Positions 544 through 43,642 of a stretch of 64,000 nt of DNA are shown here, piece by piece. This DNA comes from a virus. The position numbers and the translations under genes were made by a program. The stretch lies in IMG/VR virus record IMGVR_UViG_3300011113_000784, positions 1-64,000 of that record; one strand, written 5' to 3'. Below the pieces are notes generated by a model. That model was not told the DNA's origin, did not search any database, and saw nothing but the letters and a program-made list of their open reading frames with translations. Within the stretch, counting starts at the first letter, position 1; every line of letters starts with the position of its first letter.

Positions 544-566
544 TTATCAAGTGAGGACACGCTTCT
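544..566 (-). repeat. Solitary degenerate CRISPR repeat handle AGAAGCGTGTCCTCACTTGATAA
   Basis: 17/23 identity to the 3' 23 nt of the array repeat; 3' stem arm weakened. Confidence 0.55.
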
Positions 567-592
567 ATTACAATTAGAGTGGCGTGTCCTCA
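552..592. promoter_or_regulatory. Intergenic inverted repeat (TGAGGACACGC / GCGTGTCCTCA) overlapping a CRISPR-repeat-like 23-mer
   Basis: 11-bp perfect arms at 552-562 and 582-592 between the two tube genes. Confidence 0.7.
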
Positions 593-648
593 TAATAGAT
601 TAAGGTTAGCTATATTAGAAATCTTATTGAGGATTATAAAATTTAATT

Positions 649-1231: not shown

Positions 1232-1501
1232 TTATTCTTCGTCTTGTAACTCTGCGTATTCACCAGCATCTAAAAACTGAGCTACTTCAAGTATTTTGCG
1301 ACATTCCTCAAGGAATGTTTCTAATTCCTTGTTTTTCATGTTGAGAATGCGACAAGCACCAGACTTATTAAGTCTGCCCTTTTTGGTGTAAACTAGATTT
1401 TCATTTGAAAGTAATAAATTAATTTTTTCTTTTAGATAACTGTTTTCGAGCATGTAGAGCAATTCGCCATTTTCTATATCTTCCAGAAACTTGTTCTTCA
1501 T
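1232..1501 (-). CDS. Hypothetical protein with probable C-terminal HTH
   Basis: ATG at 1501 with SD AGGAG; GRLNKSGACRILNM helix-turn-helix-like segment. Confidence 0.65.
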   Translation of the reverse strand: MKNKFLEDIENGELLYMLENSYLKEKINLLLSNENLVYTKKGRLNKSGACRILNMKNKELETFLEECRKILEVAQFLDAGEYAELQDEE

Positions 1502-1514
1502 GAAAATCTCCTGT

Positions 1515-1536
1515 GTGTCATATGGGACACGCTTCT
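1515..1536 (-). repeat. Solitary CRISPR repeat handle AGAAGCGTGTCCCATATGACAC in a 5' UTR
   Basis: 19 of 22 nt match an array repeat with one gap; intact GTGTC/GACAC stem; 2 nt before the SD. Confidence 0.75.
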
Positions 1537-1595
1537 GGCGTGATGCGAACAAGAATAAATTAGTTATACTAATAAAACATAAATTTCAATTTAGA

Positions 1596-2084
1596 TCAAA
1601 TTCTTTTTATGGGAATTTCTTTGCTAACTTTAGTAAAATAAAATTCCTGATATCGCTTTTTTAATTCTTCGAAGTTTTTATTTGATCTGTAAATTTGTCG
1701 TAAATGGTGAATTAGACAAGTGGTTAGGAAATTAAAAGCTTTGCTTCCACGATGAGGATCAAATCGTTCTATCTTAGCAAAACAGATAAAAACGCCTTCT
1801 TGAACGGCATCATCATAATCAATTTTTTGGAAATTTCTAAAACGAACAATATTTTCCGCAAGTGTAAAAAATTCTTTAGCCAAATTATCCTGACTTTGTT
1901 TTAGCTTTTTTTCGTTTTCTATTATTTTATTTTCATCAATTTGCAATGTTGGTTTATCGACATATTGACGATGAATTTCATAATCTTCTTTTAAAAGTTC
2001 ATATTTTCTTTTATTCTTTTTAGCTTGTTGGAAATCAATAATATTTTTTTCTAGATACTTATTATCAAGATAATGGTTACTCAT
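1596..2084 (-). CDS. Sigma factor, T4 gp55-like late transcription sigma
   Basis: N-terminal HYLDNK; region 2 DDAVQEG..C..KIERFDP-RGSKAFNFLT; start reassigned to MSNHY at 2084. Confidence 0.75.
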   Translation of the reverse strand: MSNHYLDNKYLEKNIIDFQQAKKNKRKYELLKEDYEIHRQYVDKPTLQIDENKIIENEKKLKQSQDNLAKEFFTLAENIVRFRNFQKIDYDDAVQEGVFICFAKIERFDPHRGSKAFNFLTTCLIHHLRQIYRSNKNFEELKKRYQEFYFTKVSKEIPIKRI

Positions 2085-2106
2085 ATTAAAAATATAGTGT
2101 GAGTTC

Positions 2107-2871
2107 ATGAAAATAAATTGTGCAATAATAGTAGATTCTATCGAAGAAAAAGAAAGTTGTTTAACTAAATTTAAAAATTTGGAAAATAAAACATTTTTTA
2201 CTTTCAATAATGCTATCAATAAAATTAATAAACTAAAAAGCAAAAAAAACTTTTTTGTAGAGTTAGAATCATTTTACAAAAAAGAAATATTTTATATAAT
2301 TCATCCAGATGAAGAGTTAGTATTTTTTGATGAAGATGAAGCATTAAAATCACATTTTAATTTGATTGTTGATGATTGGGTAATAAAGACAAGAAGAAGT
2401 AGCGCAAAAGAAATAGCTGTGTCAAAAATATTCATTAAAAGCAGTTTTAAAAATATTAAAAAATTTGACAATGAGTGGTGTGATATTTACCAAAATAATA
2501 AAAACTTTGCTTCTAAATTAAAAGAATATATTTACATATACGATTTAGAACCAAATGAAATATTTGTAATATACCAATATGTTTTAGAACAATTAAAATT
2601 AAAACAATATAATAAGGAATTATTTTATTTAATAAAATCATTTTTGGAAAAACATCCTACATTTTTAGAATTAATTAATCTTTGGGGAGACTATCTTTAT
2701 GAAATAAATTTATTTTTTGATGCAAAAAAATGTTATGAAAGTGCTTTAAAAATCGCCGGTGATAGAAATTTATATGATTTTCTACCAATGATTCCAAGCA
2801 TGCACAAAACGCATCCTGAAAAAATGATTTCAAATATAGAAAAAATAATTTCTAAATACGATGCTATTTAG
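2107..2871 (+). CDS. Hypothetical protein with C-terminal TPR-like repeat
   Basis: LWGDYLYEINLFFDAKKCYESALKI TPR-like helix pair. Confidence 0.5.
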   Translation: MKINCAIIVDSIEEKESCLTKFKNLENKTFFTFNNAINKINKLKSKKNFFVELESFYKKEIFYIIHPDEELVFFDEDEALKSHFNLIVDDWVIKTRRSSAKEIAVSKIFIKSSFKNIKKFDNEWCDIYQNNKNFASKLKEYIYIYDLEPNEIFVIYQYVLEQLKLKQYNKELFYLIKSFLEKHPTFLELINLWGDYLYEINLFFDAKKCYESALKIAGDRNLYDFLPMIPSMHKTHPEKMISNIEKIISKYDAI

Positions 2872-11518: not shown

Positions 11519-12379
11519 TTAGATCATTTTTATTGGCAAATTTGCATAATGTTCTTCCAATCCCGGTATTATTTTCCTCATAAAATAATTATTCTTCAAA
11601 ATATCTTTAAAATATTTGGAATTATAAACAGCCGATGGTATTCCTTCTGGTGAAGCTGACATTAAATGTATGTTATTGAATCGTTTAGCTAAACCATCTT
11701 GTTGAAGAATTAGCAAGCCAGAAGTGCCATTGTTACGAACCGTAATGTTATAAAAGATGTCCATAAATCTTGCTTTATCTCTTCTTCTGAAATTTCTTAA
11801 CATGGTTTCTTCTTGAATGCTGCACCTTTGATCACAATGTGGATAAACATTTTTAATATAATTTATTTTATCGTATTTACCATTCATTATGTCATTGTAT
11901 TCATCATCAATAAATTGTGTATATTTTTCAGTCGCATCTTTGGTTGAATCAAAATAAATTATGCCACCATTGACACCTAATCCATCAGCATTCAAAATAC
12001 CAACTTTGTCCCAATTAAAATTTGAAAATTTATTAAGTAGAAATACATCTGCATCTAAATATATTCCTTTATCTTTGTTTTGTTTGGCATGAAGATAACA
12101 ATTAATATGTCTTGAAAACATTTTCCAATTCATATTTGGTTGATTGCATTTTTCATAAATTGGTTTTTGTGAAACAATTTCAAAGTTTAATTGTTTAGAA
12201 GATTCATAAACCAAAGCGGGAGCATCATCATTTTCATATGTGATGACAACTATTCTATTGTTTGGATAAAAATGACGCAACACTATGATGGAAGTTAAAA
12301 AGCAACCCCAAAATTTATGAAAACCTTTAGACGGAGAATTTGTGTAAATTGCATAATAAAACACTATTTCTTCTTGCAT
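11519..12379 (-). CDS. GT-A fold glycosyltransferase-like protein
   Basis: IYLDADVF (DxD), VNGGIIYF. Confidence 0.65.
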   Translation of the reverse strand: MQEEIVFYYAIYTNSPSKGFHKFWGCFLTSIIVLRHFYPNNRIVVITYENDDAPALVYESSKQLNFEIVSQKPIYEKCNQPNMNWKMFSRHINCYLHAKQNKDKGIYLDADVFLLNKFSNFNWDKVGILNADGLGVNGGIIYFDSTKDATEKYTQFIDDEYNDIMNGKYDKINYIKNVYPHCDQRCSIQEETMLRNFRRRDKARFMDIFYNITVRNNGTSGLLILQQDGLAKRFNNIHLMSASPEGIPSAVYNSKYFKDILKNNYFMRKIIPGLEEHYANLPIKMI

Positions 12380-12428
12380 GGATTAATTTAGTATTTTTAT
12401 ACTATTTTGATTTAGTAGCAGGGTCATC

Positions 12429-12608
12429 GTGTCATCTGGGGACACATTTCTGAGTCATTGCTAGATTGCGGCTGCTTTTTCTGGCGACTCCAACATGATC
12501 GTGTCAACTGGGGACACATTTCTGAGTCATTGCTAGACTAATCTGTCCAGACTCACGACCAACATACGACTGTGTCAGCTGGGGACACAATTCTGAGTCA
12601 TTGCTAGA
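12429..12608 (-). CRISPR. CRISPR mini-array: 3 x 37-nt repeats, 2 spacers, type V-I (Cas12i)-like; no cas genes adjacent
   Basis: Repeats at 12429-12465, 12501-12537, 12572-12608 = TCTAGCAATGACTCAGAA(A/T)TGTGTCCCCAG(A/T/C)TGACAC on minus; unique spacers of 35 and 34 nt; 3' GTGTC/GACAC stem. Confidence 0.92.
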
Positions 12609-12636
12609 AGACCGATAAGGACATACAAAGTCAAAA

Positions 12637-15087
12637 TTATCCACATTTGCTCCATCCACAAGATTTACACAAAACACAACCATCATTACGCTCAACCTGA
12701 TTGCCTTGACATGAAGGACATTCTTCACCATGCACCTTCGTTCCATCCTTGATGTACTTCTTCAAGGTTCGTGCCAACACCTTACTAAGACTAACAAGGT
12801 CACCCTTAGTTTTTTCTAGTTGGTGAACAACAAAACTAATGTCAGCGCCATGTCGTAAAGATGTGCTGACCATGCGACACAAGGCATCGCCATTTTCATG
12901 ATTATGAATGTTAGAAAGATTAAATTCTTCTTCCGCAACTCTGAAAACATATTTGCCACGATTAAGCTTTTTAAGAGTTCCCTTGTGTTCTTTTGACTTA
13001 ATTAACGGTTCGCCATTTTCTAAATTCAAGCCAGCAAATACTTCGTATGGATCGCCGCCAAGCAAGCCAACAACAACATAATATGGCTCACCCTTGACTA
13101 CAGAGAAATGAACCTCTGCATTAATGTCAGCAGGACGCTTGGGCGAGTCGTTCTTGATAATCTTAGCATCCTTCTTTTCTTCCTTCTTGGGCTTTTCAAC
13201 CAACACACCAGTACGACAGTTCTTGCGATATACGGTCATACCTTTGCAACCATACTTCCACGCTGCTTCATAAATCTTAGCGACTTGCTCTTCAGTAACA
13301 TCTTCTGGAAGGTTTACAGTCTTGGAAATAGCATGGTCAATATACTTTTGAGCTTCTGCTTGCAGTTCTACAGCAGCAACCCAGTCGATATCTTCTGCAC
13401 AACAACCAAACCAAGGTGATTTTTTGAGATCTTTTTCACCTGTAACATCCATCCACATTTTGACTTTGGGATGGTAGACTTCAAATTCCTGCCAATGATC
13501 ACCATTTTGATCAACGAAGTCTGTACGGGCATTCTTATCAGTTGGATTAATCTTTTTTCTGCGAGTGTACGGAAAAAGCATGAAAAGTGGTTCAACACCT
13601 GATGTAGTCTGAGTCATGATAGACACAGAGCCAGTAGGAGCAATGGTAAGATTGGCAATATTGCGTCTTCCATGCTTCATGATATCGTCATACAACTGAG
13701 GATCAATTTCTTTGAGCATCAAAAGGAATTCAGAATCTTTTTCCTTTTCCCTATCCCAAACAGGGAATGCACCAAGAACCTTTGCCATCTCAACACTAGA
13801 GCGGAATGAGCCAAGACACAAAGCTTTGCAAATCTTACCTGTCAACTTAACGCTTTCTTTGCTGCCATAAGCTAAACCAAGAGCAGCAATAGTATCACCA
13901 AGAGCAGTCAAACCAGTACCAGTTCTTCTGCCATTTTCGCATTTCTTGTGTACTTTTTCCCACAATTCCAATTCGTTTGCCTTAATAGTTTTAGATTCTG
14001 GATCTGATTTTATTTTCTTGATAATGGCTTCAACTTTTTCAAGCTCAAGATCAATCATGTCGTCCATTAGACGCTGACAAATCTTGGCATGTTGTTCAAA
14101 CAACGGAAAATCAAAGTGTGCATTCTTCTTGAAAGGATTGACAACATATGAAAATAGATTCAAAACCATTAAGCGGCAGGAGTCATAGCTGCATAATGGC
14201 AATTCGCTGCAAGGATTTGTTGATATGGTTTTATATCCTTCATCAGCATAACAATCAACAGCGTTGTACTTGGTAATACGATCCCAGAAAAGGAGTCCGG
14301 GTTCAGCACGAAGCCATGCATTATGAATAATCTTCTTCCACAATTCTCTTGCATCAACATAGACATCGTTATCGCTTGGTGGGGCATCGACAGGAAAACG
14401 CAAACGGAATTGCTCACCCTTTTCAACGGCTTGTAAAAATTCATCACTCAACAAAACAGATACATTTGCTCCAGTAACTTTTGTATCATCGTTCTTGATG
14501 GTGATAAACTTTTCAATATCTTTGTGAGCAACATGGATAGAAAGCATGAGTGCGCCACGACGACCAGCCTGACCAACTTCACGAATGGTGTTGCTATAGC
14601 GTTCCATCCAAGATGGAATGCCTGTGCTAGTACGAGCAGCGTTCTTTACGGATGCTCCAGATGGACGAAGGGTGGAAATATCAACGCCAATGCCACCTCG
14701 TCTCTTTGAAATTTGAGCAAGCTCTTCATCGGCTTTGAGAATACCACCATAGCTATCGGCTGGACTTTCAACGACATAGCAATTAGACAAAGAGATAACT
14801 TGATGGTTATTACCGATGCCAAACATCGGACTTCCTTGGGGCACAATATATTTAAACTTATGCAATAATGCATAAATTTGATCTTCAGTTAAAGGATCTC
14901 TATGATTAATTTTTTCAATTCTTGCAAATTCCCTTGCAATTCTACGATGCATTTGATCAGGAGTTTCTTCAAGAAGATTGCCATTGTTATCTTTTAAGGC
15001 ATACTTATCAAGAAAAACTTTGGCAGCAAGCTCATCTCCTTCAAAATAAGAAACACACTTTTCAAAAGCATCGCTGTACTGGTACAT
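12637..15087 (-). CDS. nrdJ: Class II (B12-dependent) ribonucleotide reductase
   Basis: SLSNCYV, TNPCSELPL, IAPTGSVS, KGMTVYR, C-terminal TSCPD-like domain and CPSC..CKSCGWSKC; no beta subunit nearby. Confidence 0.93.
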   Translation of the reverse strand: MYQYSDAFEKCVSYFEGDELAAKVFLDKYALKDNNGNLLEETPDQMHRRIAREFARIEKINHRDPLTEDQIYALLHKFKYIVPQGSPMFGIGNNHQVISLSNCYVVESPADSYGGILKADEELAQISKRRGGIGVDISTLRPSGASVKNAARTSTGIPSWMERYSNTIREVGQAGRRGALMLSIHVAHKDIEKFITIKNDDTKVTGANVSVLLSDEFLQAVEKGEQFRLRFPVDAPPSDNDVYVDARELWKKIIHNAWLRAEPGLLFWDRITKYNAVDCYADEGYKTISTNPCSELPLCSYDSCRLMVLNLFSYVVNPFKKNAHFDFPLFEQHAKICQRLMDDMIDLELEKVEAIIKKIKSDPESKTIKANELELWEKVHKKCENGRRTGTGLTALGDTIAALGLAYGSKESVKLTGKICKALCLGSFRSSVEMAKVLGAFPVWDREKEKDSEFLLMLKEIDPQLYDDIMKHGRRNIANLTIAPTGSVSIMTQTTSGVEPLFMLFPYTRRKKINPTDKNARTDFVDQNGDHWQEFEVYHPKVKMWMDVTGEKDLKKSPWFGCCAEDIDWVAAVELQAEAQKYIDHAISKTVNLPEDVTEEQVAKIYEAAWKYGCKGMTVYRKNCRTGVLVEKPKKEEKKDAKIIKNDSPKRPADINAEVHFSVVKGEPYYVVVGLLGGDPYEVFAGLNLENGEPLIKSKEHKGTLKKLNRGKYVFRVAEEEFNLSNIHNHENGDALCRMVSTSLRHGADISFVVHQLEKTKGDLVSLSKVLARTLKKYIKDGTKVHGEECPSCQGNQVERNDGCVLCKSCGWSKCG

Positions 15088-21172: not shown

Positions 21173-21982
21173 ATGAGATTTGTTGAATGGGCTGGCAAAT
21201 CACCTGATGTCGTTTTTGGTTTTGATAAAAGTATTCCATTGAAAAAAGAACTTCGTTACAGCGAAGAACCAATGGAGCCTTTACAGATTGAAACAACTTT
21301 GGATGAAATTGTTAATCTCGGAAAAATTGGAACAAAAGATCCAGTGAAAGATTTTGGTTCAATGGTAACTTATGGAGATCCAAATCAAGTCGGATCTATT
21401 CAAATCAAGTTTAGTCCATTTGGTTCTTGCCGTGCAACAATCATGCGAAGAATTAGTGACCTTGAAGGAGAGCCAACATGGATCACAAGATATTCTGTTC
21501 CAGTTATTAATGATTATCAACATGCATCTGAGGAAGATATCGCAGTTGAAAAAATGCTTGCTGTTAGAGTTCATGAAATAGCAGACTATCTTGACAAAAC
21601 AACATTAGAATCTCCTAATGCCAAATATGAAAGATTACAAGAACTAGTTGTAATGATTGCCGCTAACATGAAACTTAAACATCCAAAAGTCATGAATTTC
21701 CAAGGTGTAATGAAACAAGACGAAAATACATATATCATTTATTTTTCATATAACGGTTATGGAATTGAAGCTCCCGGTCAAAGGAAGGTAAATCAATTCA
21801 ATGTTTATGTTGAATTTGTAAAACAGAAGGGATTAATAAGATCATGGGGAGCAGAATATTCTGCACCTCATTTGCTGTATAACTACGAGCCTCAATCGCC
21901 TGAATGGGATGAGTATTTCTCTCCTGATCAAAACAAGAATGAGATCGTAACAGTTCTTGAAAACATTTTCAAGACTTATTGA
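21173..21982 (+). CDS. Hypothetical protein
   Basis: SD AAGGAG, N-terminus MRFVEW, 269 aa. Confidence 0.75.
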   Translation: MRFVEWAGKSPDVVFGFDKSIPLKKELRYSEEPMEPLQIETTLDEIVNLGKIGTKDPVKDFGSMVTYGDPNQVGSIQIKFSPFGSCRATIMRRISDLEGEPTWITRYSVPVINDYQHASEEDIAVEKMLAVRVHEIADYLDKTTLESPNAKYERLQELVVMIAANMKLKHPKVMNFQGVMKQDENTYIIYFSYNGYGIEAPGQRKVNQFNVYVEFVKQKGLIRSWGAEYSAPHLLYNYEPQSPEWDEYFSPDQNKNEIVTVLENIFKTY

Positions 21983-21983
21983 T

Positions 21984-22006
21984 GTGTCAGCTGGGGACAC
22001 ATTTAC
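21984..22006 (-). repeat. Solitary CRISPR repeat handle between convergent genes
   Basis: GTAAATGTGTCCCCAGCTGACAC, 21/23 to the array consensus. Confidence 0.88.
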
Positions 22007-37091: not shown

Positions 37092-37096
37092 GACTA

Positions 37097-37119
37097 GTGT
37101 AGTCTGAGTACACGCTTCT
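37097..37119 (-). repeat. Solitary CRISPR repeat handle AGAAGCGTGTACTCAGACTACAC in a 5' UTR
   Basis: 17/23 identity, same length, compensatory C-G to A-T stem pair; 5 nt before ATG 37091. Confidence 0.75.
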
Positions 37120-37167
37120 CATTTATTTATGATAGTGTGTCAAAGTAAAAAGTCAAAGGGTTTCAAC

Positions 37168-43619: not shown

Positions 43620-43642
43620 AGTAATGTGTGCCTAGATCATAC
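43620..43642 (+). repeat. Solitary CRISPR repeat handle AGTAATGTGTGCCTAGATCATAC
   Basis: 18/23 to the repeat at 12429; compensatory C-G to G-C pair plus a G-U wobble keep the 5-bp stem. Confidence 0.65.

Follow-up and report, generated by a model that had tools for sequence, protein, structure and literature searches.

A solitary Cas12i-type repeat handle precedes the ribosome-binding site of a putative sigma-region-4-like gene in a huge phage and may act in cis

CRISPR repeat hairpins have been engineered into mRNAs, as Csy4/Cas6f sites in 5' UTRs or as Cas12a arrays carried on mRNAs, where binding or cleavage by the effector alters expression. Those designs are synthetic; the hairpin described here would be a natural counterpart. 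Solitary viral repeats, and their use as RNA anti-CRISPRs, are already known. They form a recognized class (Faure et al. 2019, as referred to in PMC10651486). Many are found a short way past a promoter and work as RNA anti-CRISPRs (Racrs); Cas12a is inhibited by V-A examples, and RacrIC1 is transcribed together with a protein gene (Camara-Wilpert et al. 2023, PMC10651486). Other degenerate stand-alone repeats, those of tracr-L, CreR/CreA, and the crlRNAs, serve regulation by the effector rather than immunity (PMC10120712, bioRxiv 10.1101/2023.03.10.532045, 10.1101/2024.12.27.630466).

Phage-borne type V-I systems have been described as well (PMC7162821). The handle of the Cas12i2 crRNA has 23 nt, comprising a 6-nt 5' tail, a 5-bp stem, and a 7-nt loop, and is cut before A(-23). 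Residue A(-23) is essential for processing, and G(-22) and A(-21) are important. Guide nucleotides 1–19 lie inside a protein channel, several of them ordered even without target (PMC7567891).

The window, the 64-kb stretch of DNA analysed here, is the first part of an IMG/VR virus record of 110,967 bp (GC 34%). CheckV estimates the record to be 23% complete, and the record is therefore a fragment of a huge phage. Its sole close relative in IMG/VR is G001 (22.9 kb, 94% nucleotide identity). Two related huge phages with Cas12i-type handles, G009 and G010, are used for comparison. The features discussed below are collected in Table 1.

Table 1 Features of the leader locus, the array, and other repeat-like copies in the window.
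Feature	Position	Strand	Basis or context
Gene for an 89-aa conserved helical protein, putatively sigma-region-4-like	1232..1501	−	28 related loci; AlphaFold and VIA-align
gp55-like late sigma factor gene, region 2 only	1596..2108	−	Pfam Sigma70_r2, E 1.4e-5; PHROG 234 'late sigma transcription factor' (phrog_234), E 4e-8
Shine-Dalgarno (SD) sequence AGGAG	1508..1512	−	2 nt 3' of the handle; AGGAG/GGAG conserved in relatives, likewise ahead of this start codon
Solitary degenerate Cas12i-type repeat handle	1515..1536	−	Sequence and array-only covariance model; ortholog in G001
TATA-like box AGTATAACTAATTTA, possible promoter -10 region	1556..1570	−	Relatives have a TATA-type box similarly far from the ATG; putative
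Three-repeat type V-I-like CRISPR mini-array	12426..12608	−	Starts 28 nt after an nrdJ-like ribonucleotide reductase gene; source family of the handle
Doubtful copy sharing AGAAGCGTGTCC	544..566	−	Part of a larger 11-bp inverted repeat, flanked by two tail-tube genes of the opposite strand; model did not find it
Near-perfect solitary repeat, tail GTAAAT	21984..22006	−	Between convergent genes; model 30.7 bits, E 9.5e-7
Handle-like copy AGAAGC-GTGTA-CTCAGAC-TACAC	37097..37119	−	ATAAATA directly upstream, ATG of a 79-aa Cys-rich gene 5 nt downstream; pairing descriptor, not array-only model
Weak handle-like copy AGTAAT-GTGTG-CCTAGAT-CATAC	43620..43642	+	Antisense to both flanking genes; model E 0.024

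The original prediction placed a CRISPR handle, an SD sequence, and a start codon in succession at 1499–1570, and its coordinates and letters are correct on the minus strand. On that strand, the TATA-like box (1570–1556) is followed by a stretch ending in CACGCC. The handle comes next and consists of AGAAGC (1536–1531), GTGTC (1530–1526), CCATAT (1525–1520), and GACAC (1519–1515). It is followed by AC (1514–1513), AGGAG (1512–1508), ATTTTC, and ATG (1501–1499). The whole element sits in the 94-nt spacer between the stop of the sigma gene (1596) and ATG 1501. When the nucleotides after the hairpin are numbered as guide positions, the SD occupies +3 to +7 and the AUG +14 to +16; the 19–20 nt in the spacer position thus hold both, as had been claimed.

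The handle in the window has 22 nt (6+5+6+5, with a 6-nt loop), compared with 23 nt and a 7-nt loop in the repeat. It differs from the repeat consensus by three substitutions and one deletion, and its tail is altered to GC at -19/-18. The array repeats and the leader copy in G001 match the 6+5+7+5 geometry exactly, and the AGA that corresponds to A(-23), G(-22), and A(-21), a requirement known only for Cas12i2, is present in both leader copies. No other copy lies within 900 bp of the site. The fold energy of the hairpin is unexceptional (z -1.3). By itself the hairpin is weak and does not sequester the SD; control, if there is any, therefore requires a factor acting in trans. No U-tract follows the hairpin on its 3' side, and a terminator is therefore rejected. 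No Rfam family matched the element. A second hairpin, CACGC-CAGAA-GCGTG at 1531–1545 (minus strand), overlaps the handle and could compete with its stem. This hairpin owes its existence to three window-specific substitutions, and since it is missing in G001 we reject it as a conserved switch.

The array from whose family the handle derives has the repeat TCTAGCAATGACTCAGAAATGTGTCCCCAGNTGACAC. At the same place G001 carries an array of at least 12 repeats with different spacers and a leader of ~190 nt, and it is the only other viral contig in which the array was found. One spacer of the window array is common with G001 (two mismatches) and one is its own. The spacers have ~50% GC, against 34% for the phage, and match neither GenBank phages nor the 111-kb record. 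Set beside the array of this close relative (L005 5780–6070), the leaderless window array (12426–12640) looks like a deletion derivative. In array-less relatives, a plain terminator hairpin follows nrdJ where the array would stand.

The tie to Cas12i comes from G009. A scan for repeats of the CCGTC/GACGG type finds arrays in huge-phage contigs, and the 1080-aa protein beside the G009 array matches Cas12i2 (6LTP) at 1e-101. The window repeat and the G009 repeat have 23 of 36 bases in common, including the AGAAAT tail. Their stems differ by two compensatory pair changes, and the proximal leaders of the arrays in this lineage and in G009 are ~65% identical. From these alignments, the array repeat is homologous to the repeats adjoining the verified Cas12i of G009. 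In addition, G009 encodes a homolog of the 89-aa protein (E 2e-27), which places it in the same broad group. To call the window repeat a Cas12i2 repeat would be wrong; the Cas12i2-type stem is CCGTC/GACGG, as in G009.

A search that detected the positive control, G009, found the effector gene neither on the 111-kb record nor in G001 and 14 related fragments. The record holds no cas gene, and the leader site lies 11 kb from the array. The 816-aa ORF beside the array is rejected as a Cas gene, being a class II ribonucleotide reductase, and the other large ORFs on the record are rejected as Cas12. A single-protein search of viral contigs for Cas12i returned identical copies only. In a scan of genome contigs, the array repeat is absent from 185,579 prokaryotic species representatives. 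When metagenomes were scanned for the repeat core, only 30 isolated chance matches and no arrays turned up, and a search for a second array type with the tail AGAAGC gave only single chance matches.

To separate the leader handle from an ordinary small hairpin, we rely on a covariance model built from 13 array repeats only and searched against 232 kb of strand. The model scores the leader site of the window at 18.9 bits (E 0.0032) and the orthologous leader site of G001 at 22.5 bits (E 2.7e-4). Elsewhere in the record it finds 67655(+) at E 1.4e-4 and 79912(+) at E 0.027, and in 166 kb of array-less relatives it has no match at E ≤ 1. A looser pattern gives ~7 solo matches in the 111-kb record, compared with 1 in 234 kb of three array-less relatives and 0–1 for reversed-pattern controls. 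In a scan with a pairing descriptor, 7 matches are observed against 0.5 ± 0.65 expected from dinucleotide shuffles. A chance resemblance to the repeat would be in keeping with the short 5-bp stem and with the four departures from the consensus. Against it stand the E-values of the two orthologous copies, the empty controls, and the shuffles, together with the G001 leader copy, which, three loop bases aside, is identical to R1, a real repeat variant in the window array. We regard coincidence as extremely improbable. The predicted CRISPR handle is thus upheld as a derivative of the phage's own Cas12i-type repeat handle. It represents one real, though degenerate, copy of the 3' handle that belongs to the type V-I repeat of this lineage.

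In array-less relatives, the leader of the orthologous gene has unrelated sequence, in some cases with other small hairpins. Since these relatives lack the array as well, the leader handle arose in the array-bearing lineage, and its presence in the common ancestor of the two array-bearing phages is the best explanation. In G001, the leader reads AGAATT-GTGTC-TATAGCT-GACAC, with AGGAG following at once. In a 162-column alignment of the window and G001, 11 of the 34 columns around the handle differ, compared with 4 of the 127 in the flanks. Yet the AGA and all 10 stem bases (perfect GTGTC/GACAC) are unchanged. At least 7 changes fall within 23 positions and none in the 10 stem positions (hypergeometric p ~0.007, a value that depends on the structural alignment).

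This pattern bears on a reading in which no Cas protein takes part. A repeat copy may have landed in the leader by recombination and now be either an ordinary 5' stem-loop that affects the stability or processing of the mRNA, or a neutral, slowly decaying remnant. The small hairpins of other origin at the same leader position in distant relatives suit such a history. So do the divergence of the segment, which is the highest of the region, the loop base lost from the window copy, the failure to find an effector gene, and the reduced look of the window array, with three repeats and its leader deleted. On the other side, the AGA and the stem are kept whole while the other 13 positions have at least 7 changes, and a 5-bp stem is by itself a weak stabiliser. 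Pairing is also kept among the solo copies (55 of 55 stem cells, with three double changes), a count that is biased because some copies were picked by pairing. Overall, we consider a Cas-independent hairpin or relic somewhat unlikely. The window copy shares AGAAGCGTGT with sites 544 and 37097, which, with the likeness of the G001 copy to R1, suggests exchange among the copies.

The gene behind the handle is conserved, with 46–100% identity among its related loci. In nine relatives, the protein starts with MKNKF or MKNRF behind the same SD. In G001, an in-frame TAG stands within the hairpin loop, which precludes an N-terminal extension through the hairpin. By these comparisons ATG 1501 is the true start codon. 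The 89-aa protein finds nothing in Pfam or PHROGs. An AlphaFold model of it (pLDDT 75.5) has no significant match in Foldseek, and with VIA-align ~20 of the best 30 rows are sigma region 4 domains (Z 3.7–5.0). The earlier description of the product as an HTH protein therefore stands in a tentative form, carried by the structural matches to sigma region 4 (Z 4–5) and not by the family databases.

The placement of the gene downstream of a gp55-like sigma gene holds, as the late sigma gene is directly upstream (Table 1), and in most relatives with a readable upstream flank the small gene likewise comes after the end of the sigma gene. That late sigma comprises region 2 only. The model matches, weak but consistent, suggest that the 89-aa protein is its sigma-region-4-like HTH partner, and the two minus-strand genes at 1596–2108 and 1232–1501 may represent a split late sigma factor.

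The leader contains a single TATA-like box, 20–35 nt upstream of the handle. ATAAATA and TATA-type 7-mers are enriched upstream of genes in this phage, and a scan with the sigma-70 consensus finds no site at the leader box. The sequence ACTAATTTA had been proposed as late-promoter-like. It matches neither the upstream-enriched ATAAATA nor the TATA-type motifs, and with the sigma-70 scan empty here, that part of the original prediction is not borne out. As the handle lies within the mRNA leader, it is not an independent small RNA gene.

The placement of a lone handle before a gene recurs in related Cas12i phages. G009 and G010 together have nine distinct lone cognate handles, and eight of the nine lie 0–30 nt before the start of a same-strand ORF, most of them just after a -10-like box. 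The handle in the window differs in that it stands ~26 nt past its TATA-like box and not at +1. In G009, the ortholog of the 89-aa gene is not preceded by a handle. At L229 (G009:48869–49723, minus strand), two lone Cas12i handles stand in tandem, 32 nt start to start and 30 nt before a 120-aa gene; the 'spacer' of ~9 nt between them is far too short for a guide.

Within the record of the window, four of six copies have a same-strand start 5–52 nt downstream. The copies at 21984 and 43620 do not, and leader placement is therefore not universal in this genome. Several of these sites have features of their own. The doubtful copy at 544–566 is identical in G001. At 544–600 (minus strand), an 11-bp inverted repeat (TGAGGACACGC ... 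GCGTGTCCTCA), with AGAAGCGTGTCCTCA as its 3' arm, lies between two paralogous tail-tube genes of the opposite strand; the site may be a terminator that derives from a handle copy or imitates one. At 37092–37128, the 37 nt between two divergent genes consist mostly of the handle-like copy, the ATAAATA overlaps the start of the opposite gene, and the 79-aa gene has no SD. At 21960–22006 (minus strand), the 24 nt that follow the near-perfect solitary repeat match 12101–12124 (plus strand), within the 286-aa gene that adjoins the array; 20 of 24 positions agree, the PAM position there has ACA and not TTN, and the match is borderline chance. Two near-identical words, AGAAG[CA]GTTTCCTAATGAGCCAC, occur beyond the window, on the plus strand of the record at 101541–101563 and 101778–101800, 237 nt apart and antisense within a 2157-aa ORF. 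They are an internal coding repeat and not handles.

The several solo copies, two of them outside leaders, and the habits of the viral solitary repeat units described above would suit a Racr-like decoy. In that case the lone handle would be transcribed mainly to load or sequester a Cas12i, be it of the host, of a competitor, or of the phage itself, and its position in a leader would be a mere convenience of expression. However, the phage and G001 both retain an array of this repeat type that is apparently functional and changing, with different spacer sets, intact repeats and, in G001, a leader. Inhibition of the effector of such an array would work against the phage itself. Moreover, the search of species representatives yielded no matching host system. 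Only the 3' 23 nt of the repeat are kept, and in related Cas12i phages the copies hug start codons, which would be needless for a pure decoy. We therefore judge a decoy function unlikely, more so than the relic.

The reading best supported by the analysis, and still a tentative one, is that the leader handle is a cis-acting Cas12i site. The handle would serve as a docking and processing site in cis for a Cas12i that is probably encoded by the phage, on the unsampled part of its genome. Having recognised the AGA together with the 5-bp hairpin, the enzyme would cleave on the 5' side of the first A. It would then remain on the RNA, its guide channel occupied by the following ~19 nt, which include the SD and the AUG. 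Because guide nucleotides 1–19 of Cas12i2 are held in the protein, a loaded Cas12i would cover both the SD and the AUG here. Binding would lower translation of the mRNA of the 89-aa gene or otherwise alter its fate. As cas12i was found neither on the record nor in G001 and the 14 related fragments, we infer effector binding, processing by cleavage, and occlusion of the start site; transcription through the site and the existence of the effector have the same standing.

A Cas12i bound at the leader could also use what follows as a guide. The leader would then be a crRNA whose guide holds the RBS and start codon, and it would direct cleavage of related phages that have a TTN PAM in place of the handle, providing superinfection exclusion. 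Cas12i needs only 5' processing, and the phage's own locus has CAC at the PAM position, like the array repeats, which would protect its own copy. The seed in the form found in G001, AGGAGATT, matches the relatives L012–L017 with TTT just upstream; the seed covers nucleotides 1–8, and single mismatches at 9–20 are tolerated (PMC7567891). Several observations count against such a guide. The AC insertion in the window makes seed positions 1–2 mismatch those relatives, and in others the PAM position is AAT or GTA. Over 26 nt, four mismatches occur, and a seed made of an SD sequence would be very unspecific. We consider an mRNA-derived guide very improbable.

The cis-acting Cas12i site admits a broader and more doubtful extension, in which a phage Cas12i acts as a post-transcriptional regulator. 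The leader handles would then make up a Cas12i regulon in huge freshwater phages. At the present locus, the regulator would gate the sigma-region-4-like half of a split gp55-type late sigma and so tie late transcription to the load of the CRISPR effector. If the handle is functional, it would point to a general second job for phage CRISPR enzymes and provide a natural part for control at the RNA level. If it is a relic or a decoy, it gives a clean example of the dispersal and decay of repeat copies in phage genomes.

To our knowledge, and within the literature covered by the analysis, no natural repeat handle in an mRNA leader that recruits a Cas12 enzyme for control of translation or mRNA fate in cis has been described. 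What is new here is the bare handle by the RBS in an mRNA leader, in a phage with an array of the same repeat type, and with a layout that recurs in related Cas12i phages. Compared with the crRNA handle of type V-I (Cas12i2, PDB 6LTP/6LTU, PMC7567891), the leader copy has the same order of parts, with a 6-nt tail starting with AGA, a 5-bp stem, a loop, and a second arm. However, it lies outside the array, its loop has 6 nt and not 7, and it is followed by an RBS and coding sequence instead of a spacer bounded by a repeat.

With the solitary repeat units and Racrs (PMC10651486) it shares a single repeat-like unit in an intergenic position of a phage, away from cas genes and with a promoter-like box upstream; RacrIC1 is on a transcript with a protein gene. 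In contrast to these, the leader handle keeps only the 3' 23-nt handle, and the gene whose SD follows after 2 nt is a conserved core gene and not an acr gene. The phage itself bears an array with this repeat type, and a matching host system is not known. An anti-CRISPR effect would seem counter-productive here.

The tracr-L, CreR, and crlRNAs work in trans: a guide of partial complementarity takes them to DNA promoters, and they are situated within or beside cas loci. The leader handle is instead proposed to act in cis on RNA. A search of the 111 kb for TTN-flanked seed matches to the guide of any solo handle found none, so that a trans-acting, DNA-targeting role of that kind has no target there. 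Those RNAs redirect CRISPR effectors for autoregulation at the DNA level, and Racrs inhibit the effectors; the leader handle is a possible counterpart at the RNA level.
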